Assembly: GCA_951406725.2 (NCBI GenBank)
Contig: OX597820.1
Coordinates: 39,246,001-39,310,000 of the forward strand
Length of the DNA: 64,000 nucleotides
Direction: 5' to 3'
DNA from: Octopus vulgaris
Taxonomy: Eukaryota
Both the position numbers and the translations under genes were made by a program. Positions 4,024 through 62,410 of the stretch are shown here, piece by piece (position 1 is the first letter of the stretch; the number at the start of each line of letters is the position of its first letter). The notes beneath the pieces were generated by a model. It was not told the origin of the DNA. It saw only the letters and a program-made list of their open reading frames with translations, and ran no database searches.

Positions 4024-4383
4024 ATACGTGTACATCATCTCCAAACCTTCTAATATATCTACTTATAAGAATTTACGATAAACAAGTTTATATAAATTAT
4101 TCCTTCGTACGTTTTACCATCGTGGTCGTTTGAACACTGCTATGGATCTTCCAGTTACAATTGAATACATAACCACATTGTACATAGAAACAATTAATAT
4201 CATCCTGTGTTTATCGTAATTTAACTTTTTGTGTATATCATAACTAGTAACACTAATAAGTATAGTATTAGATTAACCACCATACTAGAATATGTTTGGC
4301 GGTGATGATCTACGTACAGTTCTGAACATAATAGTAGAAGCCGTACATCTATTTGTACACACAAGATACTCTGTGTATATGTG

Positions 4384-4434
<51 letters not shown>

Positions 4435-4855
4435 TAGCATTAAAGACCCGTCGTTGCCGGGTCATAGTGCTAGTGCATGTATATATGTGTATATATATGT
4501 GTACATATTACATGTACATCTATATATATACATCTACACATAAAATGCAAAATACAAAGTTATATCTTGATATCGCTAGTGATAACAATACTCAAAATAT
4601 ATAACAGACTGGAATTGTCTTATTATTACCCACAAGGGGCGAACATAGAGGGGACAATACAATCTGATGTGGGGTCAGATATACGAATGGGTTTACAAAA
4701 AAGGCGAATTTAAGAGTTTACAAAAATTACAAAAATAGAAAAAATCGAATGGAGAACAGACCGGAAGACATTACGGATGGAGTGGGAGCGGGTTTAGCTT
4801 GGACCCCACGAGCCCTGCCTCCCCACTGATACTTTGGTTTCGTCTATGTTTACAT

Positions 4856-5944
4856 TTATGTGGTATCATCCACTCGCAACTTTCGTGCTACATCTTTCCA
4901 TCGTTCTTCATACACTCTCTTAGTCAGGCATTTTCTCTCCAGCCCTATCTTCCTTTTCAGGTGAAAAATGAAGTAATTCATCAAACCAGGGCCGGAGATG
5001 AACTTGCCTGACCGTAAACCTTTCATTCTCGTCTTCCATATCACCTCTTTCGCAATTGCTACTACAACGAGAAAACAATTCTTACCTTCTTTCGCGAGGA
5101 AATCTGGTGGGTCAATTTTTGTAATAGACTCAGTCGACAGCTGTACTCTTCGTGTGCTTGACAACAGCTGTTCGGCATAAACCCACACCTCAGACACGAC
5201 CGAACAATGAACAATAGCGTGCGGGACGGTTTCCCTATCCCGCTCGCAACTTGGACATATCGGACTGTCTTGGCCACCGTGCCTTGCGAGTTTAGCCCGA
5301 ACAGGTAGAGCTCCTCTGTAGCATTGCCATGCCAGAGACTTCTGGAAGTTGTCCAGTGTCTTCGGCTCGAACGTATGTCGGAACAGACTGGCCAGCTGAT
5401 TATCGTCGAGACCTAGGGTTTCCCCCAAGGTATCTTCACATTCCGCCTCTACCAACCCTCTATAGAAGAATGTGGTGGAACCCCCACCGCAGCCGTTGCC
5501 CGAGCGACGGAATAGCAGGAGAGCCTTGCGACACTCCGTGTACCATGTGCCCAGTTTCGATCTACGATTCAGCCAGGTTTCCCATCCACCGAAACTAGTG
5601 AACTTGGGAAACATCAGTTTTGCTAGCGGAGACCACACCCGTTCACCATCCAGGTAGAGCCACAGATGTCTTAACCTCAGCGCATGTCTGCGCATCATCA
5701 GCCAAGGCATCCCTAGCCCACCCTTTAACGGTTGTTGACAGCAAGTAGAGCGTTTCACAAGTGGTTTCCCGCCCTTCCACAAGAAGTAGAAGAGCTGTCT
5801 TTCCAACTTGATCAACCACGAATCAGGGCAAGGAACGACGGAAAGGCGGTAGGTGATAACCGATGCGATAAACACATTGGCTACCTCCGCCCTCCCTTTC
5901 AGGGATAGCCACCGCCAAGACCAGGTCTTGGTTACTGCAGCCAC
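4856..5944 (-). pseudogene. LINE ORF2 C-terminal segment (post-RT region plus zf-RVT-like CxxC...HxxxxC)
   Basis: WSWRWLSLKGRAEVANVFI, FLWKG, GGLGMP, CPSCERDRETVPHAIVHC and IWKTR are typical of L1/Tx1 ORF2 C-termini. Confidence 0.9.
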
Positions 5945-6107
5945 CCTGCTCGATACCTCGCCTCAATTCTTCTCTATTTGGAGGTCTGGACAGAACCAAA
6001 CCCCTAGCAACTTAATCGGACCTTCCGTCCAACGTCCCACGACGCTGTCAGGAGGCATCGACTTGCCTCTTCAGGTACCGAGTTGCAAGCCGACTGACTT
6101 TTCGCGA

Positions 6108-6767
6108 TTAACTTTTTGCTCCTGTCACCGTCTCGTAAACCTCTATGGCCTTGCCTACTTTACGTAGGTGATCCATTTCGGTTACGATGATGGTGATGTC
6201 ATCCGCGTACGCTGACACCGATTTTCCACTACCTGGCTGTCTCGGGATGCCGCTCAGTTTTCGCAGTAATGGCTCAAGAGCCATCACGTACAAAATCGGG
6301 GAGAGCGGACACCCTTGACGAACCGAGCGCTTGATGTTGAACGGCTTCGACAAGAAGCCGTTCACCCGAACTACCGAGTCGATGTTCTCGTAAATTTGGA
6401 TAATCCACCTGAGGAAGCCAAGGCCCAGCCCGAACTGTGCCAGGGCAGATACCAGGTAGCGATGGTCGACCCTATCGAATGCTTTAGATTGGTCTAAATG
6501 GACCAGTTCCCCACCCTTGCCAGAATCACTATTAAACCCCTCTATAGTGTACCGCATAAGATGGAGATTATCCTGAATGGTTCTGCCGGGAACGGCACAT
6601 GGCTGTGCCTCCCCGATCAGACCATCTGCGACACGCGCCAATCTTTTCGATAAAACTTTGGCCAAAATCTTCAACTCTGTGTTTAGCAGAGTGATGGGCC
6701 TGAAATTATCAATGCACTCCCCCTTGCTCGGGTCCTTTCTGACGAGTGTCACTACTCCCCGGCGCAC
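6108..6767 (-). pseudogene. LINE ORF2 reverse transcriptase core
   Basis: NFRPITLLNTELKILAK, LDQSKAFDRVDH, VRQGCPLSPILY and AYADD. Frameshifts on both sides. Confidence 0.96.
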
Positions 6768-6870
6768 AGATCTGGGTATTAACCCGTTCTGCTGCCAGTT
6801 CGCATAGACCTCCCCAGTGGGTGCCCGAACAAGTCTGGCATACTCTTATATAACTCATAGGGTAGACCAT

Positions 6871-8079
6871 CTAAACCCGGCGCCTTGCCCACGCCGCAGT
6901 CCGCCATCGCTTCAACCACCTCCCCAGGCGTGATTGGCCCTTCACAGCCCTCCGCATCTCGCCCCGATAAAGCGCGGCAGCCTGTCGAAGGAGGTCCGTA
7001 AAGGCCCTCCTCCTATCCAGTCCGCTGCACTCACCGAAAAGCTGAGCGAAGTGCTCCTGAAAGGCCTCACACATCTGGTTTAACGCCGGTCTCTTGGCCG
7101 TCACCTGAACCGCAGAGCCAGTTTTCAAGGCTTCCTCTAATTCCTTAACTACAGTAGATTCCCTCCTAACCTCTCTAGCCACTAATCCTATGCTATATCT
7201 AATAGACTCGAATTTGATGGCTCGCTTGAGGGCATACCACCATTTGTTATTAATGATGGCACCAGATAGCGCCCTCTGGATTATTGTCCTAATCCGGTCT
7301 CTGTACTCCTTAATCGCCAAAAGGGACGTATTAAGTTTCCAGTAACCGGAGCCCCTATTTTTAACCTTATCTATGTCAAGCTTACAGGTGACCATTTTAT
7401 GATCACTGTAGCTGACCAGGTAAAACTTTGGACACTTAGCTATTTTTCTGTCTACTTTTCTAATTAATATCCTATCTATAAATGACCTGGAAGATCCGTC
7501 GCTGTTTGACCATGTCCACAATGGAGCGTTCGGAAATTCCAACCTATAAGGATCTGCTAGCTCAAAGTGGCTTAGCAGTTCCAGGAAGCCAATGTTACCT
7601 TTTCTATCTGGACGCAAGCCAACACAATCTACATCCGTTTTGCAAATTGTGTTAAAGTCTCCTAGCACAACTAATGAATGCGAAGTACCAAGAAAGTTTT
7701 CCAGTTCTCGAAAATAATCACTTTGCCCTTTTTGGTTGGGTGTGTAAATTGCAACCAGTCTGATAACTTTACCGTTACCGAACGTCAAATCCATGACGAC
7801 CAGCCTACCTTCTGGGTCTGAAAAAATTAACTTTTTCTCAAAAACCCGGTTTCTTTTTAATAGGACCAATACCCCACCCCCGCCTGTAGGACTGGCCGGA
7901 GAGAAAAAACTCTCGTAGCCGTCAAACAGTGGGAGTAGACCTCTTGGCCCCTCTAACCGGGTTTCTGTAGCAACAATAACATCCAAATTACGCGACCTTA
8001 TATCATTAAGGAAGCGACATTGCTTCCAGCTTGATCCCAGGCCGCACACATTTAAACAACCAACATAAATGCAATCCAT
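6871..8079 (-). pseudogene. LINE ORF2 apurinic-like endonuclease domain and linker
   Basis: LNVCGL, ATET, AIYTPN, LGDFN, WTWSN...SFIDRIL, SDH and GSGYWKLNTSLL. Confidence 0.95.
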
Positions 8080-8271
8080 GACTTACCTTATATCAGTAGT
8101 TCGACTTGTTCGACTTGTTTTTCTTCTTCTTCTTCACTTTTATTTTTTTCCTGGGTTCGTGGGGGAGTCCGACGCAGGCCCTCGTATAAATATGGAGATA
8201 TGTCCAATCTCAGAGGGCCCACGTCGTGAAAGAATTCGGATTTTATCCGTCCGTAATCCTTCCGGCCTATT

Positions 8272-9453
8272 CTATAAACAATACAAGTCTTTTGTTTTTT
8301 TAATTTTCTCCACCTTGGCCATGGCTGCCAAAACGTTAATTAGCCTGTTGTTGGCAGCCTTAATGGCCATAAATGTATTCGTCGCTTCTTTCCTCTTTTT
8401 TTGGCTCTCTTTCTGAGGGGTGGTTTCTGTTTTCCGTTTTTTTGGGGGGTAATTTTTGACCACCCCTCCTCTTTTTCCTTTTCTTCACCACTTGTTGTTT
8501 CTGTTGCTTCTTTGGTTTCTGTAGTTTCTGGTGTTTTCTCTTCTGTTTTCTCTTCTGTTTTTTCTTTTTCTGGCGGTGCTGCTTCCTGCGGTCTAGGTTG
8601 GCACTCCGCTCTCACGTGCCCTTTTTTACCGCAGCCGAAGCACCTCGGCTTTCTGCCCTCCACAAACACAAACACCCTCTCCTCCTCGCTGATCCTCAAT
8701 ATCTCTGGAATTTCTTCCAACGTCTGGACCTCCGCCTGTATCGCCATTGAGATGCATTGACCTTGCCAATACTCCTCCTCCTCTACTGTAGCCTGGAGGA
8801 TAGTGATCTTGTCCTCCAGGCCTAACAACACTGCCACCACTAGGCATGTGGCATCCGCTTCTGGCGGAATATTTTTTATTAATATTCTTGAGGTCCTTCT
8901 GCCTCTGTACAGGGGGAGGAGGATTATATTCTCCGCTTTTAGAGGTTCGGTTGATAGCTTCTTGGCTATCTCCTCAGTCCTGAACCTCACCTCAGCCGTT
9001 CCAAATTTTCTGCCACGGTTTATATACGTGATGTCCTTCCATATTGTCTTTAGACAATTCTCGATTTTTTCTCTTCCACTCTTTGAATGGTTTTCATCGT
9101 CGTATTGTATGTTTTGTAAATAATCCTTCTGTTATCTACTTCCTCTGTCTTTTTGACGTCTGGTATCACTGTTACTTCATTACCTTCCTTTTTCAAACAT
9201 GCTGCATATTTTTCTAAGTTGCTTTTATCCGTGTTGATTTTTTTCTGTTTTTTCCTGCAACTTCTGCGAACTTCTTCGCTGGGGCTTCTTCTATTTTCGG
9301 CGTCACCGCCGGTGAAATTTCTTCCCCTGATACAGGTGAATAGGAGATTGGAGTCTCCATCTCTGGATGGGCCTTTTCAATTGGCTTTAACAAGCCTTCA
9401 AAAAAAGAATTCTGGCTTCGCAAGCCTTTTATGTGTATTTTAAACTGTTGCAC
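8272..9453 (-). pseudogene. LINE ORF1 (Gag-like nucleic-acid-binding protein with CCHC knuckle), frameshifted
   Basis: Pieces at 9214-9453, ~8990-9220, 8340-8990 and 8272-8463. VEGRKPRCFGCGKKGHVRAEC (CX2CX4HX4C) is followed by an E/K/T-rich tail. Confidence 0.88.
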
Positions 9454-9634
9454 AATAATTGTTTCACAACAATTCCCCCGCAGGGGGGAATTTTAATACG
9501 TAGCCTTCGCGCGAAGGCTAATAACAGTTTTACACAAAATACACAATATATAAAACAAAGTAACAATAATTAACTTAACAAACCGGTAATAAACAGCAAT
9601 CGACAAAACAGACTGGCGTATAACAGACTGGAAT

Positions 9635-11549
9635 TGTTTTATTCCTACCCACAAGGGGCAACATAGAGGGGACAATACAATCGGGAAAAATAAAATAATG
9701 AATTATGAAGTTTGTACAATGTGGTGTAATGCCCACTCGATCCCCGAAATCGAGCGGTTACATTTCGTCATTTTTTTATTACGTCAACAATATTTTCCAA
9801 ATAAAAACATTTTACACATTTTCAACAAACATTTCAACAATCTTAGAAAGTTCAACGTATTTTTTTTCAGAATTTAAAGTTCTTTTTATCATTTCCAAAT
9901 TAAAGTTTTCACAATACCTTTTCTTTTATATATACTCCATTATCTCTACCAAATCTTGGTAAATTTCCATCATTCGTGGCCACCTTGTAAGTCGGCATTT
10001 CATATGTTTTGACACGTTCTTGCCAGCTGCCTCGATGAACGCCTCAGCGTCGTTCTCGTGGACGAGTGCACCCGTTTCTTTCCATTCGGTGCCCATCCTG
10101 ACCCACGTATATCCATTTGTTACGTTTATTAAATCTTCCATCTCCTCACAGTGCCTGTGATGGATCAATGTTCCATAGTATTTGAATTTTCTATTCGTAC
10201 CTGCATTTTCTCTAGTTTTTCTCTTAGGACTTACTTCCTCTTTTTTCTCCTCTCTCGGTTTCTCTCTTTCTCTCTTTTTGCTTTCTCTTCTTTCTTTTTC
10301 CTTCTCTTGTCTTTTTGGCTCTTTGTCTGTCGTCTCTCTACCCTGTGCCTTATGTTCCTTTCCTGTTGTTTCTTTTCCTTTTTGCATACCATCTTTTCCT
10401 TTCTCTTGGTTCTGTCCCTTCTCTTGTTCTTTTCCTGTTTTTTCTCTTTCCTTTAATGTACTTTCCTTTTCTTTCTCTTGCTTCTGCCTTGGCTCCTTCT
10501 CCACTACTTCTCCACCCTGTGAATTTTGTTCCTTTTCTACTATCTTCTTCCCTTTGTTTTCATTGTCCTTCAGTGCGCTGTTACTTCCCTTCTCTTGTAG
10601 TTTCTCCGTTATTTCCTTTTCCTTGTTTTCGCTGTTCTTTCCTTCGTGTTCTTTTTCCTTCTCTCCACTTTGTGTCTCTTTTTGCTCCGCTGTGAATTCA
10701 TACAGCGGACATTCCTTTTTTATGTGCCCTCTTGACCCGCACAAGTAGCAATTCGGTTTTCTCCCCTCCACAATTACACTAATTGTTTTCTCGTTTTCTA
10801 TTTCTATTTGGAAGGGAAACCTTTCGATATCTTCCATTGTGGCCATCAGCCACAACTCTACTCCGAATCCCTTCCAATTTACAACGTTGCTCTCCTTGAC
10901 TGACCCTATTTCTACTTCCTCCTTTGCTGACCCTAGAATGGCTGTTACCAGCATTTCTGTTTTTATTTCTGGGGGCACCTTTGGGACTCTTACCCGTACC
11001 CCTCGTCTTCCTTTATACGTCGGCCACATAGTGAAATTTTCGGCTTTCAAACAGTGGAAGCTAATGAGGCCGCCACTTCCTTTGTTGCGCATCTCACCTC
11101 CACCGTACCATATTTCTTACCTCTGTCTACAAAAGTCGCTTTTTTCATAATGTCCCCCAGACATTTCTCTATTTCTTCAATCGTCACTCTCACCAGTTTT
11201 CTCGTGTTCCTATATTGCGTTCTATACGTTATCGTCTTGTTATTTCTCTCCTCTATTGTTTCAACAGGCGGGACCAGCTTCACGCTGTCACCCTCCCTTT
11301 TGACGAACTTCTCGTATTCCTTCAATTGTTCTTTTCTAAAGAACACTTCTCTTATTCTAAGAGACTCATCCCTTTTTGTTGTGGCGACCCCCGTGTAAGT
11401 CTTCATGACTAAGGGGTCAACACACCTTCTATAAAAGGTTCAAACACGCAGCGGCAGACGCCTCGTGCGATTCAATTTTTTGACAATTTTTTAACAGTTT
11501 TTTTTCCAAATTTTTCACATACAAAATAACTAACCAACACACTCAATGA
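9635..11549 (-). mobile_element. ORF1-only non-autonomous retroelement ('half-Tx1'), copy 1
   Basis: Consists of a short 5' UTR, one Gag-like ORF and a 3' UTR ending in the LINE-like tail. No APE or RT. Bounded by AGACTGGAAT (9625-9634) and AGACTGCAAT (11550-11559). Confidence 0.88.
9926..11406 (-). CDS. ORF1/Gag-like CCHC protein (~490 aa reconstructed), one frameshift near 11050
   Basis: ORFs 11047-11406 and 9926-11092 join when compared with copy 2. Contains VEGRKPNCYLCGSRGHIKKEC, a long K/E/Q-rich linker and a ~85-aa C-terminal domain (FKYYGTLIHHRHCEEMEDL...EIMEYI). Confidence 0.8.
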
Positions 11550-11559
11550 AGACTGCAAT

Positions 11560-13489
11560 TGTTTTATTCCTACCCACAAGAGGCAACATAGAGGGGACAA
11601 TACAATCGGGAAAAATAAAATAATGAATTATGAAGTTTGTACAATGTGGTGTAATGCCTATTCGATCCCCGAAATCGAGCGGTTACATTTCGTCATTTTT
11701 TATTCGTCAACAATATTTTCCAAATACAAAACCTTTTACACATTTTCAACATACATTTCAAAAATTTTAGAAAGTTCAACATTTTTTTTTTCAGAATCTA
11801 AAGTACTTTTTATCATTTCCAAATTAAAGTATTCACAATACCTTTTCTTTTATATATACTCCATTATCTCTACCAAATCTTGGTAAATTTCCATCGTTTG
11901 TGGCCACCTTGTAAGTCGGCATTTCATATGTTTTGAGACGTTCTTGCCAGCTGCCTCGATGAACGCCTCGGCGTTGTTCTCGTGGACGAGTGCACCTGTT
12001 TCTTTCCATTCGGTGACCATCCTGACCCACGTATATCCATCTGTTTCGCTTATTAAATCTTCCATCTCCTCACAGTGCCTGTGATGGATCAATGTTCCAT
12101 AGTATTTGAATCTTTTATTCGTACCTGCATTTTCTCTAGTTTTTCTCTTAGGACTTACTTCCTCTTTTTTCTCCTCTCTCGGTTTCTCTCTTTCTCTCTT
12201 TTTGCTTTCTCTTCTTTCCTTTTCCTTCTCTTGTCTTTTAGACTCTTTGTCTGACGTCTCTCTACCCTGTGCCTTATGTTCCTTTCCTGTTGTTTCTTTT
12301 CCGTTTTGCATACCATCTTTTCCTTTCTCTTGGTTCTGTTCCTTCTCTTGTTCTTTTCCTGTTTTTTCTCTTTCCTTTAATGTACTTTCCTTTTCTTTCT
12401 CTTGCTTCTGCCTTGGCTCCTTCTCCACTACTTCTCCACCCTGTGAATTTTGTTCCTTTTCTACTATCTTCTTCCCTTTGTTTTCATTGTCCTTCAGTGC
12501 GCTGTTACTTCCCTTCTCTTGTTGTTTCTCCGTTATTTCCTTTTCCTTGTTTTCGCTGTTCTTTCCTTCGTGTTCTTTTTCCTTCTCGTTTTTGTTCTCT
12601 CTCCACTTTGTGTCTCTTTTTGCTCCGCTATGAATTCATACAGAGGGCATTCCTTTCTTATATGCCCTCTTGACCCGCAGAAGTAGCAATACGGTTTTCT
12701 CCCCTCCACAATTACACTAATTGTTTTCTCGTTTTCTATTTCTATTTGGAAGGGAAACCTTTCGATATCTTCCATTGTGGCCATCAGCCACAACTCTACT
12801 CCGAATCCCTTCCAATTTACAACGTTGGTCTCCTTGATTGACCCTATTTCTACTTCCTCCTTTGCTGACCCTAGAATGGCTGTTACCAGCATTTCTGCTT
12901 TTATTTCTGGGGGCACCTTTGGGACTCTTACCCGTACCCCTCGTCTTCCTTTATACGTCGGCCACATAGTGAAATTTTCGGCTTTCAGTTCAGTGGAAGC
13001 TAATGAGGCCGCCACTTCCTTTGTTGCGCATCTCACCTCTACCGTACCATATTTCTTTCCTCTGTCTACAAAAGTCGCTTTTTTCATAATGTCCTCCAGA
13101 CATTTCTCTATTTCTTCAATCGTCACTCTCACCAGTTTTCTCGTGTTCCTATATTGCGTTCTATACGTTATCGTCTTGTTATTTCTCTCCTCTATTGTTT
13201 CAACAGGCGGGACCAGCTTCACGCTGTCACCCTCCCTTTTGACGAACTTCTCGTATTTCTTCAATTGTTCTTTTCTAAAGAACACTTCTCTTATTCTAAG
13301 AGACTCATCACTTTTTGTTGTGGCGACCCCCGTGTAAGTCTCCATGACTAGGGGGTCGACACACCTTCTATAAAAGGTTCAAACACGCAGCGGCAGACGC
13401 CTCGCGCGATTCAATTTTTTGACAATTTTTTAACAGTTTTTTTTTCCAAATTTTTCACATACAAAATAACTAACCAACACACTCAATGA
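11560..13489 (-). mobile_element. ORF1-only non-autonomous retroelement ('half-Tx1'), copy 2
   Basis: Colinear, highly similar copy of 9635-11549 with scattered substitutions. The right boundary is AGACTGGAAT (13490-13499). Confidence 0.88.
11850..13345 (-). CDS. ORF1/Gag-like CCHC protein, one frameshift near 12590
   Basis: ORFs 12533-13345 and 11850-12428. Contains VEGRKPYCYFCGSRGHIRKEC. A 14-nt extra segment (cgtttttgttctct) relative to copy 1 shifts the frame. Confidence 0.8.
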
Positions 13490-14170
13490 AGACTGGAATG
13501 TTAGCTCTTCTTTTTTCTCTACATTGTATACTTTATAGACAATAGTCTTTTCTTTAATCGAATTTTTTATTATCCATCTGGACTATTCCATTTCTGCACG
13601 CTAATTTTATTTTTAATTTAATTCCCATTCATGTGAAACCACTTATTCAAGTTCAAATCATTGATGCAATTTTATACCAATTGCTATTTTTACTTATATT
13701 ATACTTTAGTTTGATTTTAATTATTACTTACTACATATAATCCAATTGTTATTATTATTTTTATTGTTAAAGTGAAAGCATCTGACATAAAAATAGAGAA
13801 ATATTTTTGTTTCACTTTTAACACGTAATACTGAAATAGTGGAGAAGATATGATATTGCTATGGGCTCGCTCTAGGCAAGAAGTTGAACATTTTGTTTGC
13901 CCATGAAAGTACATTGACCCTAAGTAAGGTATGTGTAAAATTTGAATGAAATTGGTTGTGTAGTTCTCAAGTTTTAGGGAATCGTAGTGGAAAAGAAATG
14001 ATATTATTGTGGGCTTGCCCTAGACAAAAAGTTAAATTTTTTTGCCGATAACACTCCCCGGACCCTAAGTAAGGCATATGTAAAATTTGAATGAATTTGG
14101 TTTTGTAGTTCTCAAGTTTTAGGGAAACACACAGACAGACAGACACATATTCTCAGTTTTATATATATAA

Positions 14171-14223
<53 letters not shown>

Positions 14224-14611
14224 GGGGGTGATTGAGTGTGCGTGAGTGTGTGTGTACAGAGAAAGAAGGAAAACTTGAGAGATATAGAAAACAGATAGAC
14301 AAAGTCATTAGTGTGAACTGCCGTTAAGCAGCAAAGTATAATCAATATGGTTAAAACGGTATATCTTCCAGAATGTGTCTGTTTTAATGCCTTTTCCGAA
14401 TTTCTCATTCTTGTTAAATATATTCCATATTTGCCCTGCAGTCTAATGTAGTTTGTGAATCCTAACCCATTAGTAAGTATTTATTCAGCACTTTGCACTA
14501 ATTTTACATCGATAAATATCCGATAAATATATATAAAAACTCTTAAATTTCATAATATAGTGTTATCTTAAATTACACGATGTAATTTTTATCGTAAATT
14601 TCAACGTAACA

Positions 14612-16626
<2,015 letters not shown>

Positions 16627-23092: not shown

Positions 23093-23237
23093 AAAAGCAA
23101 TAAAGATTCAAGTCAATTTTAATGAATTTACTTGAATATGGTACCTAACTTAGATGCACCAAAAAACTATACGGTTTTAACAATACAGTAATGTGGGGTG
23201 ATTATAAGCGAGAAAGAAGCAACAAGAATGGATAAGT

Positions 23238-23328
23238 TTTTAGTACAATCGTTTCATACAAAGACAGGCTTTATTAAAAGTTGCAAAAATTGCAGCATAT
23301 AAACGTGTCCCGTACTCATCAGCTAAAA
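23238..23328 (-). ncRNA. Type I hammerhead ribozyme (left-arm copy)
   Basis: Reverse complement of 24648-24738. Confidence 0.8.
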
Positions 23329-24647
23329 TACATGTGAGTTCTCTAGACATCTTAGTGGTTGAGGCTATACTCATGAAGTAATGTAGATAATTAAGTAACA
23401 TAAACAGATTTCCAAAGTTCATTAAAGTTCTTTAAAGATGATGTACAGTCTTATCACAGATTTTTAAAAAAGTTTTAATAGCATCACAGAGAAGGTGACT
23501 TAATCCATAGTGTACATATGAATTTCCAGAGATATGAGGAGGGATTACATACTCACAGACGACAAATTTATCCATGGCTAATCACAACGAGGTGGGTATC
23601 AATTCCTGCTTATTAGCATTACAGAGAGGGTGAATTAATCCTTTGTATAGGTGCACAATTTCCAATGGTGTAGATGTAAATTTCCAGAGAAATGAAGAGG
23701 AATTTCATATTCACAGACGATAAATTTATCAATGGTTTAACACAATGAGGTAGGTATCAATTCTTGCTATATGATTAGGTATTTGCCACATTAATCACAT
23801 TACTGCTATTTTCAAGAGACTGTAGCTATTTAACTTTTAAAGGCTGAAGGGCTTTCTAGAGAGGCAAAGAACAGAAAGGGAAGGAAAGAGAGGAAAAGAG
23901 AGAAAATAAAGGAGGAGGGAGCAAAAGGGGGGGACTAAAAGAGAAGAGAAAAGGAAAAAGAAAAAAAGAAAATAGAGAATAAGAAGAAGAAAAAGAAAAA
24001 GAGAAAAGAGAAAGAAAAGAAAGAGGGAAAGAAGGGAGAAAAGAAAAAGAAAAAGAGGGTTCTAGTTATACAGAAGAATTTCTCTCTTTTCCTCTCTTTC
24101 CTTCCCTTTCTGTTCTTTGCCTCTCTAGAAAGCCTTTAAAAGTTAAATAGCTACAGTCTCTTGAAAATAGCAGTAATGTGATTAATGTGGCAAATACCTA
24201 ATCATATAGCAAGAATTGATACCTACCTCATTGTGTTAAACCATTGATAAATTTATCGTCTGTGAATATGAAATTCCTCTTCATTTCTCTGGAAATTTAC
24301 ATCTACACCATTGGAAATTGTGCACCTATACAAAGGATTAATTCACCCTCTCTGTAATGCTAATAAGCAGGAATTGATACCCACCTCGTTGTGATTAGCC
24401 ATGGATAAATTTGTCGTCTGTGAGTATGTAATCCCTCCTCATATCTCTGGAAATTCATATGTACACTATGGATTAAGTCACCTTCTCTGTGATGCTATTA
24501 AAACTTTTTTAAAAATCTGTGATAAGACTGTACATCATCTTTAAAGAACTTTAATGAACTTTGGAAATCTGTTTATGTTACTTAATTATCTACATTACTT
24601 CATGAGTATAGCCTCAACCACTAAGATGTCTAGAGAACTCACATGTA

Positions 24648-24738
24648 TTTTAGCTGATGAGTACGGGACACGTTTATATGCTGCAATTTTTGCAACTTTT
24701 AATAAAGCCTGTCTTTGTATGAAACGATTGTACTAAAA
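24648..24738 (+). ncRNA. Type I hammerhead ribozyme (right-arm copy)
   Basis: TTTTAG-CTGATGA-GTACGGGACA...TGTCTTTGTAT-GAAA-CGATTG-TA-CTAAAA. Helix I is TTTTAG/CTAAAA, helix II is GU-rich with a long loop, helix III is the quasi-palindrome ACGATTGT, and the triplet is GUA. Confidence 0.8.
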
Positions 24739-24766
24739 ACTTATCCATTCTTGTTGTTTCTTTCTT

Positions 24767-25182: not shown

Positions 25183-25620
25183 TCAGCCATTTAATTTGGG
25201 TGAGAACTTAGCTATGAAATATTTTTCCATATTCCTCCTGAAAGAGGTGTCGTTCTTCGGACATTTGTAGAAGGGAAAGATCTTAAATTTTCCTTCTCCA
25301 CACGTAGCTAGGTGTGTACTTAGTGGTATTTTGCGTAGTTCTTCCTGCCGAATATGTTGTCGGTGAATCCTGGCTCGCTGGCACAAAGAATTACCAGTTT
25401 CACCTACGTAATTATCCTTGCACGTGGGGCAGGTTATGCAGTATATAACGTTCTGCGTCTTGCAGTTCATATCTGCATTTACTTTGAATACGTAACCACT
25501 TTTAAATCTCATCTCTCTGTTTCCCTCTATGTATTTGTAGGTGGAGTTGCTGCAGATCACTGTATCCACCAGATTATCGGATGTTGTTATACACCTCTGA
25601 TCATAATTGGCCTTTGTCAC
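25183..25620 (-). CDS. Penelope-like element GIY-YIG endonuclease domain (5'-truncated element, frame still open)
   Basis: MNCKTQNVIYCITCPTCKDNYVGETGNSLCQRARIHRQHI...LSTHL...RRNMEKYFIAKFSPKLN, with the VIY-YVG, R, E and N motifs plus CxxC. No RT upstream. Confidence 0.88.
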   Translation of the reverse strand: MTKANYDQRCITTSDNLVDTVICSNSTYKYIEGNREMRFKSGYVFKVNADMNCKTQNVIYCITCPTCKDNYVGETGNSLCQRARIHRQHIRQEELRKIPLSTHLATCGEGKFKIFPFYKCPKNDTSFRRNMEKYFIAKFSPKLNG

Positions 25621-45900: not shown

Positions 45901-46106
45901 AGATAATGGTGTCATTGAGACCCAAAGGTGTCAGGTAATGCTGAATAAGTGCTATAGACAGACCATAGTTTAGTTCCAGATTCGGTAATATTGCGAATAA
46001 AGGATTCAACGCTGGTTCTATGTCAGCGTGTGTATATAAGAATTTTTTACATGATAAGATAAAAAAAACAAGGCTGTGTAGATATTAGAGCATTTATAGA
46101 CAGAAG

Positions 46107-46158
46107 GTCTTACAGCTGTTTCTAGGATATTTATTAATTTTATCCCTTCATCGGAGAC
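46107..46158 (-). ncRNA. Hammerhead ribozyme variant (left-arm copy)
   Basis: Minus strand GTCT-CCGATGA-AGGGATA...TATCCTA-GAAA-CAGCTG-TA-AGAC. Confidence 0.7.
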
Positions 46159-46321
46159 AGTGTGAGAGGATAGTTAAGTCATAGTTAGTTTAGTTGTGAT
46201 GCGAAATAGAGAGTGAGGTGGTGGAAAGAATACATATCTTGCATCTATTGTCTTTCCTCCACCTCACTCTCTATTTTATATCACATCTAAACCATCTATG
46301 ACCTAACTATCCTTTCACACC

Positions 46322-46373
46322 GTCTCCGATGAAGGGATATAATTAATAAATATCCTAGAAACAGCTGTAAGAC
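46322..46373 (+). ncRNA. Hammerhead ribozyme variant (right-arm copy)
   Basis: GTCT-CCGATGA-A-GGGATAT-loop-ATATCCT-A-GAAA-CAGCTG-TA-AGAC. Helix I is GTCT/AGAC and helix III is the palindrome ACAGCTGT. The core has C at position 4. Confidence 0.7.
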
Positions 46374-46488
46374 CTTCTATCTATAAATGCTCTAATATCT
46401 AATATATACATATATATTTACATATGTATGTGTGTAATATGTATGTATAGATGTATGTATTCATATATACATGTGTGTGTGTGTTTGT

Positions 46489-48846: not shown

Positions 48847-48914
48847 TCCTTTCTACAAGGAGGTAAGGTAAGTGTTTCATTGGTGCTTAATTTATCGACC
48901 CCAGAAGGATGAAA

Positions 48915-49360
48915 GTCTTCGCAGCCCATTTCTGGGTAAGACTGGCCGCCCTGTTTGCCACTTCGTCCCAGTTTTTATTGGGACGAAATCAGATCCCGAG
49001 CAGTTTAACTGGCCCGTCGGTCCAGCGTCCTACGACCGTCCGATGGCATCGACCTGCCTCTCTAGGAGCCCAACCGCAAACCCACAGATTTGCAGGCGTT
49101 TTATTTTTAGCCTTTGCAACCGACTCATATCCCTTTAGGATAGTACCAACCGTCTCCACTTCGGAGGCATCCGACACCATTACGATGGCATCGTCCGTGT
49201 ATGCACACACTGCCCTTCTGTATCCCACTTCGAAGGGGATGCCTCAACTGTTCCAACTTACGCAGCAGTGGCTCGAATGTCAATACCTACAGAAGAGGCG
49301 AGAACATGCAACCCTGACGGATGGAGCGTGCGATGCCAAACGGTTCCGAACCTAGTACGG
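48915..49360 (-). mobile_element. Diverged Tx1-like RT fragment
   Basis: AVCAYTDDAIVMVSD...GYESVAKAK...VVGRWTDGPVKLLGI, homologous to 5980-6330 of the long LINE. Confidence 0.85.
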
Positions 49361-55170: not shown

Positions 55171-56241
55171 AAGTGCCCTGCCTGTGTCCAAGATTTCCGC
55201 AAATCGAACCATGGACACATGGCTGGCACTTGACTGATGGCCGATGATGGTGTTATGTTAGGACGACATAACAATTAAGGCGAGGAATTTTTCCAACGCT
55301 CTAACGATTTTGTAAATTTTCAACTAGTTATAAAAATACTACGACAGCTACATTCTCTATTAAAGAAAACTGAAGATTTAGTATAATGGCAAACCAACAA
55401 ATTTTAAAGGAATCAAATGAATGAGCGAGCTTCAAATCTACAACTAGTTATAAAAATTTCTGACAGCTACATTCTCTACTCTAAATTTACCTCAAGCAAA
55501 AAAGGCGGCGAGCTAGTAGAATCATTAGCACTCCGAGCAAAAATGCTTAATGACATTCCTCCTGTCTACACGCCCTGATTTTCAAATTCAGCCGTGATCG
55601 ACTTACCCTTCCGTCACTTTCAGGCTCAATAGAATAGGCACCATTCGAACACTGGGATCGATGTAAGTGACTTACCGCCCCTACCCTGAAAATTGGTAGC
55701 TTTGTGCTAAAGTTTGAAATCAATTTACCCCCCAGAGAAAACTGAAGGTTTAGTATAACGACAAGCCTACAAAAATTAAACGAGGGAAGTGAATAAGCGA
55801 GCTTCAATGAGTCTGTATTAGTGACATTATATTTATTAACCAGCATACTACTTTCCTTCTAGTGTCTTTAAATCTAAAATTATGCTGAAGCTAGACTGAA
55901 TATATTATTCTTCATAATTGGTTTAGTGATTTGTTTACTGTGTATAATGCAGTATTTTCTCGACATTATTGTTGAAACAGCTGACAATTATATCATAGTG
56001 ATGTGGTGCAATTTGGTTGTTGTTGCTTAAACAGACATTAAGTACATAAGTATAGAAAAAATTAATGTCTAAACAGAAAGTAGAGACAGACAAAAAAATA
56101 ATAATGTAGTTTTCATAACGCCCGATATTAATTGAGAAAGCAACAGGCAATCTTTTGACTTTTAAGCCATCACAACTAACGCACGAACACAAACACAAGC
56201 GCACGCACGCAACCGTTTCTTGTTTCGCCCGAGGGTGTAAA

Positions 56242-56738
56242 GGTGGCTGTAAGGAAAAAGGCCGGATTTCCAGGAGTTCTCAGTTGAAGTGGCTGTCGGG
56301 AAAAGTGCCGGATTTCGAGGAGTTCTGTCCGGAGGTGGCTGTCGGGAAAAGTGCCCGATTTCCGGGAGTTCTGTGTGAAGATGGCTGTCGGGAAAAGTGC
56401 AGGATTTCCGGGAGTTCTTTGTGGAGGTGGCTGTCGGGAGAAGTGCCGGATTTCTGGGAGTTCTCTGTTAAGGTGGCTGTTGAGAAAAGTGCAGGATTTC
56501 CGGGAATTCTGTGATGTGGCTGTCGAGAAAAGGCGAGTTTCCGGGAGAGATATTTGGAGTTGGCTGTTATGAAAAGTGCTGGACATCCCCCCGATGCTCT
56601 GTTGGAGATGGATGTCAGGAAGAGTGCCGGATTTCCGGTATTTCTTTGATGAGGTGGCAATCGAAAAAAGTGCCGGATTTCCGGGAGTTCTGTGTGGAAT
56701 TGGCTGTCGGGAAAGTACCGGATGCCGGGAGTTCTGCG
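56242..56738. repeat. GC-rich minisatellite, ~38-39-bp unit, about 13 copies
   Basis: Unit approximately GGTGGCTGTCGGGAAAAGTGCCGGATTTCCGGGAGTTCT. Confidence 0.93.
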
Positions 56739-56740
56739 TG

Positions 56741-58015
56741 TCGTTAAATGAAATTAAATAACGTTATATGAGTGACGTTACATGGCGTTGAATGACGTTA
56801 AATGACGATCAAATGATGTGAACTTAAATTACATTAAATGACGTTAAATGACGTGACGTTAAACGACGTAAAATAACGTTAAATAATGTTACGTTAAATG
56901 TCGTTAAATGACGCTACATGACGTGACGTTAAATGGCCTAAACTGACGTTAATTGACGTGGCGTTAAATGACGTTAAATGATGTCATATTAAATGAAGTT
57001 AAATTAGGTGACGTTAAATGACATGACGTTAAATGACGTTAATTGACGTAGCGTTAAATAGGTTGAATAACGTTAAATGACGTGACGCTAAACGACGTTA
57101 AATGACATGACGTTAAATGACGTGATGTAAAATGACGTTAAAGGACGTTATATGGGTGACGTTAAATTACGCTAATTGACGTGACGTTAAATGACGTTAA
57201 TTGACGTAACGTTAAATGGAGTTGAATAAAGTTAAATGACGTGACGGTAAATGGCGTTAAATGACGTCAATTTAACGTCATTCATGTAATGTCATTTAAC
57301 GTCATTTTATATCACGTCATTTAAAGTCCTTTAACGTCCCTTAACGTCATTTAACCTCATGTCTTTTAACGACATTTAGCGTCACGTAACGTCACGTCAT
57401 TTAGCGTAATTTAGCGTCACCCATATAACGTCAATTAACGTCATTTTACATCACGTCATTTCACGTCATTTAAAGTCACGTTATATGAGTGACGTTAAAT
57501 TACGCTAAATGACATGACGTTAAATGACCTTAATTGATGTAAGGTTAAATGGCGTTGAATAAATTTAAATGACGTGACGGTAAATGACGTTAATTTAACG
57601 TCACTCATGTAATGTCATTTAACGTCATTTTACATCATGTCATTTAAGGACCTTTAACGTCATTTAACGTTACTTAACGTCACGTCATTTAGCGTAATTT
57701 AACGTCACCTATATAACGGCATTTAACATCATTTTACATCACGTCATTTAACGTCATGTCATTTAACGTCATTTAAGGTCGTTTACCGTCACCTCATTTA
57801 AAGGTTATTCAACGCCATTTAACGTTACCTCAATGAACGTCATTTAACGTCATCCATATAACGTCATTTAACATCATTTTACATCACGTCATTTAGCGTA
57901 ATTTATCGCCATTTAACGTCGCTTATCATCACGTTATTTAACGTCAATCAACGCCATTTAACGCTACGTCAATTAACGTCATTTAACGTCACGTCATTTA
58001 GCGTAGTTTATGTCG
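56741..58015. repeat. AAATGACGTT-based satellite, block 1, with internal inversions
   Basis: 10-bp core with 5-bp variants. Orientation flips near 57268, 57480 and 57592. Confidence 0.93.
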
Positions 58016-58233
58016 CCTAAGTTATGTCTATAGCTTGTCTATAGTTCTGTCTATAGTTTTAAACTATAGTTTTGCCTGTAGTTTGCCATAGAAATTTCAA
58101 CCTATAGTTTTAGCCTATAGTTTGTCTATACATGATCCATAGATTTTAATGATTTTTCTATAGTTCTGCCTATAGTTTTAGCCTATAGTCTTGCCCATAC
58201 TTTGCCTATATTTTGCCTATAGATTTAGCCTAT
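58016..58233. repeat. (G/T)CTATAGTTTT-based minisatellite
   Basis: Units of 11-13 bp with a palindromic CTATAG core. Confidence 0.9.
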
Positions 58234-58655
58234 ACATTCCAGATATTTCGGACATTACCGGCATTCCAGACATTCCGAACATCCCAGCCATACCAGATAT
58301 TCCAGACATTCCAGTCATTTCACCTGACTAATAAAATACAGTTCGCCAAAAGCAAGCCATAAAATAGCAGACATTTCACAATTCTAGACATCACCGGTAT
58401 TACAAACATTCCGGACATTCCACACATTCCATACATTCCAGACATTCCACATATTCCAGGTATTCCAGGCATTCCAGAATGACATTCCAGAATGACATTC
58501 CAGACATTCCACGCATTCCTGACGTTCCTTTATATGACGTGACAATAAATTCCATTCCATGTCGTGACAAGACGTGACATTCCATTTTATTCAAAGACGT
58601 GAAATGACGTGACATTCCATGACGTTCCAGATATTGAGGTATTCCACACACCCGA
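58234..58655. repeat. GACATTCCA-based 9-bp minisatellite
   Basis: Repeated gacattcca variants. They produce the ECL/ECV pseudo-ORF. Confidence 0.88.
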
Positions 58656-58659
58656 GGTA

Positions 58660-61600
58660 TTAAATGACGTAACGTTAAATGGCTTTAAATGACGTAATGA
58701 TAAACGACGTTAAATGACGTGATGTAAAATGACGTTAAATGACGTTATATGGGTGACGTCATTTAACGTCATGTCATTTAACGTCGTTTACCGTCACGGC
58801 ATTTAACGTCATTGAACGCCATTTCACGTTACGTCAGTTAACGTCATTTAACGTCACTCATGTAATGTCATTTAACGTCATTTTACATCACGTCATTTAA
58901 CGTCCTTTAACGTCATTTAACCTCAAGTCGTTTAACGTCATTTAACGTCGCTTACCGTCAAGTCATTTGGCGTAATTTAACGCAACACATATAACGCAAT
59001 TTAACGTCATTTTACATCACGTCATTTATCGTCATTTAACGTCATGTCATTTAACGTCATTTAACGTCGTTTAACGTCCTTTAACGTTATTCAACGCCAT
59101 GTAACGTAATGTCTATTAACGTCATTTAACGTTACGTCATTTAGCCTAATTTAACGTCACACATATATAGTCATTTAACGTCATTTTAAATCACGTTATT
59201 TAACGTCATTGAACATCATGACATTTAACGTCATTTAACATCATTTACCGTCACGTCATTTAACGTCATTTAACGTCATTTTAAATCACGTCATTTAACG
59301 ACACATCATTTAACGTCACGTAATTTAGGGTAATTTATCGTCACACACATATAGTCATTTAACGTCATTTAACGTCATTTAACGTCATGTCATTTAACGT
59401 CATTTAACATCGTTTAACGTCATTTAACGCCATTTAGCGTTGCGTCAATTAGCGTCATTTAGCGTCACGTCATTTAGCGTCACGTCATTTAGCGTAACTA
59501 AACATCACCCATATAACAACATTTAACGTCATTTTACATCACATCATTTAGTGTCATTTAACGTCACGTCATTTAACGTATTTTAATGTCACCCATATAA
59601 CGTCATTTAACGTCATTTAACATCATGACATTTAACGTCATGTAACGTCGTTTACCGTCAAGTCATTTAACGTCATTTTAAATCACGTCATTTTACGTCA
59701 TTTAACGTCATGTCATTTAACGTCATTTAACGTCGTTTACCGTCACATCAATTAACGTCATTTAACGTCACGTCATTTAGCGTAACTTAACTTCACCCAT
59801 ATAGCGTCATATAATGTCATTTTACATCACGTCATTTGACTTCATTTAACGTCATTTAACGTCATTCAACGTCACGTCATTTAGCGTATCTTAACGTTAC
59901 CCATATAACGTCATTTAACGTCATTTTACATCACCTCATTTAACGTCATTTAACATCATGACATTTAACGTCATTCAACGTCGTTTACCGTAACGTCATT
60001 TAACGTCATTAAACGTCATTTTAAATCACGTCATTTAACGTCATGTCAGTTAACGTCACTTAACATCGTTTACCGCTGTATCATTTAATGTCATTTAACG
60101 TCACGTCATTTAGCGTAATTTAACATCACACATATAAATGACGTCATTTAACGTCATTTTAAGTCACGTTATTTATCACGTCATGTCATTTAACGTCATT
60201 TAACGTCGTTTAACGTCATTCAACGTCGTTTACCATCACTTCATTTAATGTCATATAACGTCATTTACCGTCGTTTGACGTCATTCAACGCCATTTAGCG
60301 TTACGTCAATTATCGTCATTTAGCGTTACGTCATTTAACGTAACTTAACGTCACCAATATAACGTCATTTAACGTCATTTTACATCACGTCATTTAACGT
60401 TATTTATCGTCATTTTACATCACGTCATTTAACGTCATTTAACATGACATTTAACATCATTTAAAGTCATTTAACCTCATTTAACGTCATTTTAAATCAC
60501 GTCATTTAACGTCAGTTAACGTCATGTCATTCAACGTTGTTTACCGTCGTTTACCGTCACATCAGTTAACGTCTTTTAACGTCAAGTCATTTAACGTCAT
60601 TTAACGTCGTTTACCGTCACGTCATTTAACGTCACGTCATTTAGCGTATTTTAACGTCACACATATAACGTCATTTAGCGTCATTTTACATCACCTCATT
60701 TAACGTCATGTCATTTAACGTCATTTAACGTCGTTTACCTTCACATCATTTAAGGTCATTTAATGTCATTTTAAATCACATCATTTAACGTCATTTAATG
60801 TAATTTTAAATCACATCATTTAACGTCATTTAGCGTCATGTCAGTTAACGTCACTTAACGTCGTTAACCGTCACATCATTTAACGTCATTTAACGTCATT
60901 TAGCGTAATTTAACGTCACACATATAAAGATAGTTAACGTCATTTAACGTCATGTCATTAAACATCATTAATGTCGTTTAACGTCATTCAACGCCATTTA
61001 ACTTTACGTCAATTAGCGTCATTTAGCGTCACGTCATTTAGCGTAACTTAATGTGACCCATATAACGTCATTTAACGTTATGTTACATGACGTCATTTAA
61101 CATAATTTAACGTCATGACATTTAACCTCATTTAACGTCGTTTAGCGTCACGTCATTTAACGTCATTTTAAATCACGTCATTTAACGTTATGTCATTTAA
61201 TCTCATTTAACGTCATTTCACGTCGTTTACCATCACATCATTTAACGTCATTTAACGTCACGTCATTTAGCGTAATTTAACGTCACATGTATAAAGTCAT
61301 TTAATGTCATTTTAAATCACGTCTTTAACGTCATTTAAAGTCATGTCATTTAACGTCATTCAACGTGGTTTAACGTCATGCAACGTCATTTACCGTCATG
61401 TCATTTAACGTCATTTAACGTCACGTCATTTAGCTTAAATTAACGACACCCATGTAACGTCATTTAACGTCATTTTACATCACGTCATTTAACTTCGTTT
61501 AACGTCATTTAACGTCGTTTACCATCACGTCATTTAACGTCATTTAACGCCATTTTAAATCATGTCACATAACGTCATTTAAAGTCATTTAACGTCGTTT

Positions 61601-62410
61601 ACAGTCACATCATTTAACGTCACGTTATTTAGCGTAATTTATCGTCACACATATATAGTCATTTAACGTCATTTTAAATCACGTCATTTAACGTTGTTGC
61701 CCGTCACATCATTTAACGTCACGTCATTTAGCGTAATTTATCGTCACATATTTATAGTAATTTAACGTCAATTTATATCACGTCATTTAACGTCATCTCA
61801 TTTAACGTCATTTAACGTCATTCAACGCCTTTTAACGTTACGTCAATTAACGTCATTTAGCGTAACTTTACCTCACCCATATAACATCATTTAACGTGAT
61901 TTTACATCAAGTCATTTCATGACATGACGCTAAATGACGTTAATGACTTGATGTAAAATGACGTTAAATGACGCTATATGGATGACGTTAAGTTACGCTA
62001 ATTGACGTAACGCTAAATGACGTTAATTGTCGTAACGTTAAATGGCGTTGAATGACGTTAAACGACGTTAAATGACTTTAAATGAGATGACGTTAAATGA
62101 CGTTAAATGACGTAATTTAAAATGACGTTTAATGACTATAAATGTGTGACGATAAATTATGCTAAATGATGTGACGTGAAATGACGTTAAATGATGTGAC
62201 GGTAAACGACGTTAAATGACGTGATTTAAAATGACATTAAATGACTATGTATGTGTGACGATAAATTACGCTAAATGACATTTAACGTCATTTAACGTCA
62301 TTTAACGTTATTTACTGTCACATCATTTAACGTCATTTAACGTCACGTTATTTAGAGTAATTTAACGTCACCCATATAACGTCATTTAACGTCATTTTAC
62401 ATCACGTCAC
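58660..62410. repeat. AACGTCATTT-based satellite, block 2, with higher-order units and inversions
   Basis: Recurring higher-order landmarks (tagcgtaatttaacgtcacccatataacgtc, ttttacatcacg, ttttaaatcacg, gtttaccgtcac). Orientation flips near 58757, 61919 and 62280. Confidence 0.95.

Follow-up and report, generated by a model that had tools for sequence, protein, structure and literature searches.

An ORF1-only retroelement family of Octopus vulgaris that shares a 3' tail and an insertion site with an L1-group LINE

The 64,000-nucleotide stretch of the Octopus vulgaris genome analysed in this work (assembly GCA_951406725.2, contig OX597820.1, forward-strand positions 39,246,001 to 39,310,000; hereafter the window) contains two adjacent retroelement units, A and B, that encode a Gag-like ORF1 protein and carry no ORF2. 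Both belong to a family that we call h1. Our analysis makes it highly probable that h1 is an old ORF1-only family with a 3' tail and an insertion site in common with a long interspersed element (LINE), that its RNA is likely reverse-transcribed in trans by the ORF2 of that LINE, and that its copies likely accumulate inside a Helitron-like host as new insertions are added on the upstream side of the array.

Two ORF1-only units inside a Helitron-like host

The units lie head-to-tail next to a broken LINE copy, and the whole array sits within a non-autonomous Helitron-like element (window coordinates, all on the minus strand):

13500..14173, minus: upstream part of the Helitron-like host, with 5' TC after a (TA)n run and a 145-bp two-copy repeat
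13531..13537, minus: TATAAAG motif, putatively a TATA box, 38 nt upstream of the insertion point
11561..13499, minus: unit A, ORF1-only element of family h1 (target-like 5' head, 5' untranslated region (UTR), ORF1, 3' UTR, tail)
11850..13345, minus: ORF1 of unit A, frameshift near codon 249 (~12600), CCHC knuckle at ~12644-12691
11561..11607, minus: LINE-shared 3' tail of unit A
9636..11560, minus: unit B, second ORF1-only element of family h1
9926..11406, minus: ORF1 of unit B, frameshift near codon 120 (~11050)
9636..9682, minus: LINE-shared 3' tail of unit B
9619..9635, minus: left-hand repeat of the 17-bp target-site duplication made by the LINE (AATTCCAGTCTGTTATA); empty sites have this sequence once
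4617..9618, minus: partner LINE, broken copy with ORF1, apurinic/apyrimidinic (AP) endonuclease, reverse transcriptase (RT) and zf-RVT, no poly(A), lacking ~170 bp near 7075
4600..4616, minus: right-hand repeat of the 17-bp target-site duplication made by the LINE
4434..4599, minus: downstream part of the host, with a hairpin at 4445-4463 and a 3' CTAG that a (TA)n run follows

The original prediction of two ~1.9-kb units without endonuclease or RT holds for 13499-11561 and 11560-9636: Pfam detects neither domain in A or B, while the adjacent LINE carries both. The units have no poly(A) tail, and an Rfam scan of window positions 4300-14300 gave no match. They are 97.1% identical (55 mismatches over 1922 columns). 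The resemblance of their last ~50 nt to the LINE tail, also noticed at the outset, amounts to 89.6% over 48 nt for A (E 5e-12) and 91.7% over 48 nt for B (E 1e-13); outside the tail, units and LINE share only short patches of ~70% identity, within ORF1, and folding of the two tails disclosed no common structure. The single ~490-aa frame announced for each unit is not intact in either, since A carries a 14-nt insertion near codon 249 (leaving open reading frames (ORFs) of 270 and 153 aa) and a single base is missing from B near codon 120 (119 and 388 aa). Neither break falls within a homopolymer, and a frame of 486-498 aa is open in 9 of the 30 h1 copies fetched. The peptides quoted in the prediction are present in the sequence, its Gag-type knuckle being a zf-CCHC domain that scores above the Pfam cut-off in both units. 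It had overlooked a 9-17 bp motif at all four junctions as well as the Helitron-like host that encloses the array. The 2.9% distance between A and B, neither of which is the nearest neighbour of the other among family copies, weakly supports their separate insertion.

The ORF1 protein was modelled from a 61-row alignment (predicted local distance difference test, pLDDT, of 88.8), a single-sequence prediction being set aside (pLDDT 38.8). In the model, the La RRM aligns with residues 46-134 (Z 9.5, root-mean-square deviation 2.4, 82 aligned), and residues 135-216 are ferredoxin-like with a middling score (Z 8.1, deviation 2.7 over 78). The order along ORF1 is RRM, ferredoxin-like domain, one CCHC knuckle, a long charged linker and a C-terminal domain, and the unit protein qualifies as a Gag-like ORF1 with a predicted RRM fold followed by a zinc knuckle. 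The C-terminal domain has no Pfam match; the ESM Atlas gave no usable match for residues 400-493, and CCHC and ZCCHC3-type leads for residues 1-250, neither result being evidence of novelty.

With its AP endonuclease, RT and C-terminal zinc-binding region, the partner LINE is assignable to the L1 group. Its ORF2, open over 1127 aa in another copy, matches human L1 ORF2p over residues 3-863 (E 2e-63) and R2 at 1e-21. The preference of this LINE for another repeat as target is typical of the Tx1 clade: among the first 30 of its 55 3' ends, 13 abut the Helitron-like host and 5 a second repeat. There was no Tx1 name among the 120 database matches listed; the label "Tx1-like" is used here provisionally, the assignment being firm to the L1-group level.

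Helitrons begin with 5' TC, end with 3' CTRR preceded by a subterminal hairpin, and insert between A and T. The host is Helitron-like by its 5' TC, hairpin, 3' CTAG and (TA)n setting. Its two parts, which flank the array, recur in the genome, the same upstream sequence preceding arrays elsewhere and being continuous with the downstream part at empty sites. The empty form has a single copy of the motif that the LINE insertion turned into a 17-bp duplication (9619-9635 and 4600-4616), and among the first 30 of 109 exact matches to the site, 29 hold no insertion. Insertion at this main site takes place at a fixed point ~38 nt after the host TATAAAG, in either of two unrelated sequences. Indeed, a longer host variant with ~310 extra bases is entered at about the same distance behind TATAAAG, in a different sequence, and the short-form motif farther downstream remains empty in these copies. 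The junction motif follows a different upstream sequence in 28 of the first 30 of its 1,742 sites, and none of the arrays examined lies at such a place. Because the motif alone is unused and the long-host insertion keeps its distance to TATAAAG, the upstream sequence is needed. The one off-target site that was hit twice has TATAAA at -39. Half elements, as we call the ORF1-only units, and the window LINE both also enter a third recurrent target, located in another repeat and associated with its own matching heads (L290-L294, L120, L128).

A dispersed family within an old ORF1-only clade

Family h1 is a dispersed ORF1-only non-LTR (long terminal repeat) family. Scoring the best 40 of 565 candidates, a DNA search placed it near full length at no fewer than 33 places on 17 contigs with 93-100% identity, and a 31-nt motif of its 3' UTR has 34 exact matches in the genome. 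Off-target copies possess target duplications of their own, of 16 and 17 bp in 5'-truncated copies and of 17 and 18 bp in full-length ones; 5' truncation and target-site duplications are hallmarks of target-primed reverse transcription. Dispersed copies with the same ORF1-to-tail junction and their own duplications, which the prediction had put forward as a check, are thus plentiful. The unit is contained in sequencing-run contigs under four organism labels, and the nearest named proteins to its ORF1 are Octopus vulgaris predictions. Contigs from presumed RNA runs also cover it; such contigs cannot show transcript starts, and we claim no expression.

Several off-target insertions recur in paralogous segments, namely at 18.2 Mb of C16 and 4.35 Mb of C31 (L007, L006/L010) and on C11 (L023, L024, L029). 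The C31 segment has one h1 unit more than that of C16. We considered this pair as an indicator of growth direction and discarded it, as it does not show direction.

To place h1 among its relatives, 49 stretches (the window and 48 others) were segmented at tails into 131 units, of which 109 are ORF1-only and 22 have ORF2 domains; they include at least six half families. Over its N-terminal 238 aa, h1 shares 71% of residues with h0 and h4 but 33-36% with the LINE ORF1, which bears out the view that the protein is homologous to the LINE ORF1 and strongly diverged from it. The 130 ORF1 domains of these stretches are followed by a tail in 100 cases, by an endonuclease in 23 and by neither in 7, one "half" row being discounted as a truncated LINE with a SINE-like (short interspersed element) tail. 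None of the 23 endonuclease-linked ORF1s found falls inside the h0/h1/h4 clade. The best outside relative is an O. bimaculoides protein, 49% identical and known here from the protein alone, and a search with this protein led to 17 deeper loci with 43-70% identity to h1. Seven of these have clear tails, about five have weaker ones, and an endonuclease directly after ORF1 is seen in 0/17. The half clade occupies 21 of the 36 rows of the extended tree with 100/100 support and no endonuclease-linked row; h3 and h10 fall outside this clade, in a tree whose root is not known, and may have lost ORF2 separately. The genome-wide searches, which scored the best 147 of 13,507 and the best 93 of 30,587 candidates, turned up no autonomous LINE with a near-identical ORF1, in keeping with the earlier judgement that the unit is not a recent internal deletion of this LINE.

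The ratio of non-synonymous to synonymous change (dN/dS) among h0, h1 and h4 is 0.13-0.17, at dS 1.0-1.6. Since purifying selection acts between families that are all ORF1-only, the notion of an old, independently evolving, protein-coding lineage gains support from the two checks suggested for it, the ORF1 phylogeny and dN/dS, and the sequences support purifying selection on the clade after loss of ORF2.

Families h3 and h5 carry their own tail variant, with 122 exact matches (L204-L233). Within 1.5 kb upstream of these tail sites, ORF1 is found in 28/30 and ORF2 in 0/30, and some h3/h5 units insert further upstream in the same Helitron-like host.

Array growth and proposed mobilisation

At least six half families use the Helitron-like site. 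The largest array stacks 22 h0 units and one LINE in one host copy over 44 kb (C7:100087097-100131552; L101-L105), with junction heads that change stepwise along it. Other arrays mix h0, h1, h3, h4, h5, h10 and LINEs in varying orders. The arrays are internal on their contigs, host sequence closing both sides. In h0 arrays, later-branching subfamilies lie upstream, with 108 concordant versus 9 discordant among 117 informative pairs; the sign is the same in 7/7 h0 arrays (permutation p 0.0002, the pairs not being independent). Unit order compared with the subfamily tree points to addition at the upstream end.

Full-length units start with a head that resembles the target yet differs from the local host. 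CAGTC-type heads occur in 18/19 cases in short hosts and in 0/89 in long hosts, and the h1 tree divides largely by host type. A GCTGCC variant upstream of the cut was found for 3/3 filled host sites, versus 1/30 for the ordinary form, and it reappears off target, where a local 17-bp duplication precedes it. These two occurrences suggest that the head is borne by the RNA. In host coordinates, the off-target head starts ~32 nt after the first T of TATAAAG, and ~32 nt is the spacing of a TATA promoter. The RNA probably begins a few bases upstream of the cut, its tag replacing the left duplication; an internal promoter would yield identical 5' tags.

From unit structure, dispersal, target duplications, empty sites, selection and array order, we infer trans-mobilisation, the transcription start and the role of ORF1 as follows. 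A unit made of head, UTR, ORF1, UTR and 48-nt shared tail, devoid of ORF2, would be served by the LINE ORF2, which may bind the shared tail and prime target-primed reverse transcription; trans-mobilisation of this kind is suggested by the shared tail, the shared site and the duplication length. Copies are dispersed, some of them 5'-truncated, with 16-18 bp target duplications, and at the main site they lie at the fixed point behind the host TATAAAG. An RNA started just upstream of the cut would leave a target-like 5' head instead of a left duplication, and each new copy would insert between the host motif and the previous element. The element may retain its own ORF1 to coat its own RNA.

A different origin of the arrays, in one event or in blocks, would require that ORF2 copies LINE RNA and then jumps to half-element RNAs, or that a half element and a LINE are joined in a read-through RNA and copied as one. 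Three observations lend themselves to it. The LINE is the last unit in 17/17 mixed arrays as segmented, where 6.6 are expected. Among on-target 3' ends, 17/20 of h1 (first 30 of 34) abut another element, against 1/14 of the LINE (first 30 of 55), of which 13/14 abut the host directly, though most host sites are empty. Finally, one contig of run X1 passes from tail into head. Half elements thus settle before residents at a rate well above that expected from the proportion of filled sites, an excess that we cannot fully explain. Yet the off-target site of C16/C31 has a local 17-bp duplication between h1 and LINE, so that two insertions are needed there; solo h1 copies and LINE-free arrays occur; and the subfamily order is common to arrays on different contigs. 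Moreover, the LINE 5' parts behind h1 copies within 5% of each other diverge by as much as 34%, and because neighbouring h1 and LINE do not co-vary, h1 is not a fixed LINE module. We regard block formation as improbable.

Local tandem duplication of one unit, by unequal crossing over at the junction repeats or by assembly expansion, would account for runs of near-identical h0 units, for the smaller distance within (1.2%) than between (3.8%) arrays and for the C31 pair, which differs at only 14/1904 columns. It sits poorly with window units that are 2.9% apart without being nearest neighbours, with arrays that combine several families and LINEs in varying orders, and with heads that change along arrays. 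Duplication may supplement stepwise insertion and cannot replace it; as the sole origin of the window units and long arrays, it is very unlikely. Still less credible is an origin of the unit by deletion from an autonomous LINE family beyond the reach of our searches, for although these scored the best candidates only, the lineage must have lost ORF2 once and the deep relative L239 is ambiguous, families 43-75% identical to the h1 ORF1 are likewise ORF1-only, the C-terminal domain cannot be aligned to the LINE ORF1s found, and the clade stem measures ~0.6-0.7 changes per site.

Several observations weigh against the stepwise trans-mobilisation of an old ORF1-only family that we favour. A second LINE family, whose endonuclease is 65-70% identical to that of the window LINE, is present in the same arrays (L033-L034, L118-L119, L126), and a SINE-like repeat ends in a related tail with 39,105 exact 33-nt matches genome-wide; because the tail motif is not private to the window LINE and a second LINE family exists, the helper is not pinned down. 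Nearest neighbours lie in the same array for 39/54 units of multi-unit h0 arrays, some at zero distance, so local duplication also contributes. A TATA motif at the given distance precedes 0/10 distinct single off-target sites, and the third target lacks it as well. In L239, ORF1 is not followed by a tail, and a piece of ORF2 lies distally. The dN/dS of 0.16-0.59 in 21 pairs from 7 open copies is conditioned on openness, and its pairs are not independent. Finally, 46/62 h0 units share one frameshift in a C7 homopolymer run, which may be an assembly error or may reflect copies that spread without an ORF1 of their own, ORF1 then being dispensable in cis.

A universal TATA ruler, which we also considered, is ruled out by the ten single off-target sites and the TATA-less third target. 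The SINE-like repeat (L254-L259) often forms 184-bp tandems, and no tRNA was called in it.

A bolder reading, which we hold only tentatively and think rather doubtful, is that the Helitron site is a promoter-like landing pad contested by ORF1-only parasites and LINE helpers. The newest copy, lying next to the host TATA motif, would be transcribed from that motif with a 5' tag matching the target and become the next source, arrays would be a one-directional record of how the element evolved, and the divergent ORF1s, with their C-terminal domain of no known family, would steer insertion to positions before residents, a role likened to that of HeT-A Gag and TRE5 ORF1.

Elsewhere in the window, positions 23211-24765 hold a perfect 635-nt inverted repeat with a 285-nt purine-rich spacer (a fold-back element or an assembly product), and a second inverted repeat at 46079-46401 (151 nt, 92% complementary, 21-nt spacer) resembles a miniature inverted-repeat transposable element. 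A minus-strand GIY-YIG endonuclease ORF at 25183-25512 (Pfam E 1e-6) is probably a Penelope-like fragment. Two minus-strand ORFs at 15068-16170 have no Pfam match; by a motif they contain, they look like the C-terminus of a LINE of the type that encodes a restriction-like endonuclease. The plus-strand 148-aa ORF at 48909-49355 weakly resembles an acyl-CoA thioesterase, with a score under the Pfam cut-off. Positions 56235-62245 are a satellite whose 10/25/35-bp units form blocks that alternate in orientation; a 46-bp repeat precedes it.

Precedents and significance

HAL1 of mammals encodes only ORF1p and has several independent origins (PMC5753468). The octopus units are likewise non-autonomous, of the L1 group and limited to ORF1. 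In a comparison of structure, they differ by a LINE-shared structured tail without poly(A), an RRM/CCHC ORF1, a site preference and tandem stacking in another transposon. To our knowledge, mammalian L1 ORF1p has no CCHC knuckle; devoid of poly(A) and endowed with CCHC, the octopus units are not mammalian HAL1 proper.

HeT-A is non-autonomous, arrayed and 5'-tagged (10.1101/782904), and ~40% of Drosophila telomeric families are ORF1-only (PMC13534243). The octopus system resembles them in combining ORF1-only elements and RT-bearing partners in mixed head-to-tail arrays, in its upstream-derived 5' tags and in its same-subfamily runs. HeT-A-type elements are of the Jockey clade, lie at chromosome ends and benefit the host, whereas the octopus units are of the L1 group, lie at internal sites with 16-18 bp duplications and have no known host role. 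TRE5-A.2 of Dictyostelium, ORF2-deleted and ORF1-bearing, is mobilised in trans, requires a 3' module and inserts at a fixed distance from a promoter complex, TRE5-A ORF1 binding TFIIIB (PMC3159450). It is a deletion derivative of its helper, whereas the octopus ORF1 is only 33-36% identical to that of its helper. Drosophila R1 tandems grow at the 5' duplication of earlier copies, and R1 transcripts in some cases include target sequence from upstream, which anneals at the 5' junction (PMC2718515). According to the same source, R1 is autonomous, resides in 28S rDNA and averages two to three copies per unit at most; the octopus arrays are mostly non-autonomous, comprise several families and reach 23 per site. 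In crocodilians, Tx1-Mar and SINEU-3 insert into a Mariner, where sequential tandem copies sandwich a duplication, and Xenopus Tx1L inserts in Tx1D (PMC4494074). There too, Tx1 elements and non-autonomous partners enter a DNA transposon, although the partners described are non-coding SINEs and the hosts are Mariner, Harbinger or piggyBac, not Helitron-like.

A 2026 repeat annotation of O. vulgaris lists 80 L1-Tx1 families, and ORF1-only ones are not mentioned in the parts of it examined (PMC13282606). The literature searched contained neither ORF1-only Tx1-like mollusc elements nor Helitron-targeting ones, while Repbase, Dfam and the Zenodo library of PMC13282606 lay outside that search and may hold such families. 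Each ingredient thus has a precedent in HAL1, HeT-A, TRE5-A.2, R1 tandems or Tx1-Mar/SINEU, and their combination in the octopus was not found in that literature.

For genome annotation, the units are listed in databases as uncharacterised octopus proteins, and an RT-based classification would miss them. Having two naturally occurring host variants makes it possible to tell the upstream determinant apart from the sequence that is cut, a point relevant to site choice in the L1 group, and the ordered arrays would provide a relative chronology of subfamilies without a clock. Because the ORF1s of helper and parasite are far apart (33-36% identical), both ORFs are available as open copies and the target is a short, well-delimited sequence, the system also makes it testable why a non-autonomous element retains an ORF1 of its own. 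To conclude, the octopus may harbour a second, telomere-independent community of the HeT-A/TART type, in which several old ORF1-only lineages and their helpers build ordered arrays at a neutral site.

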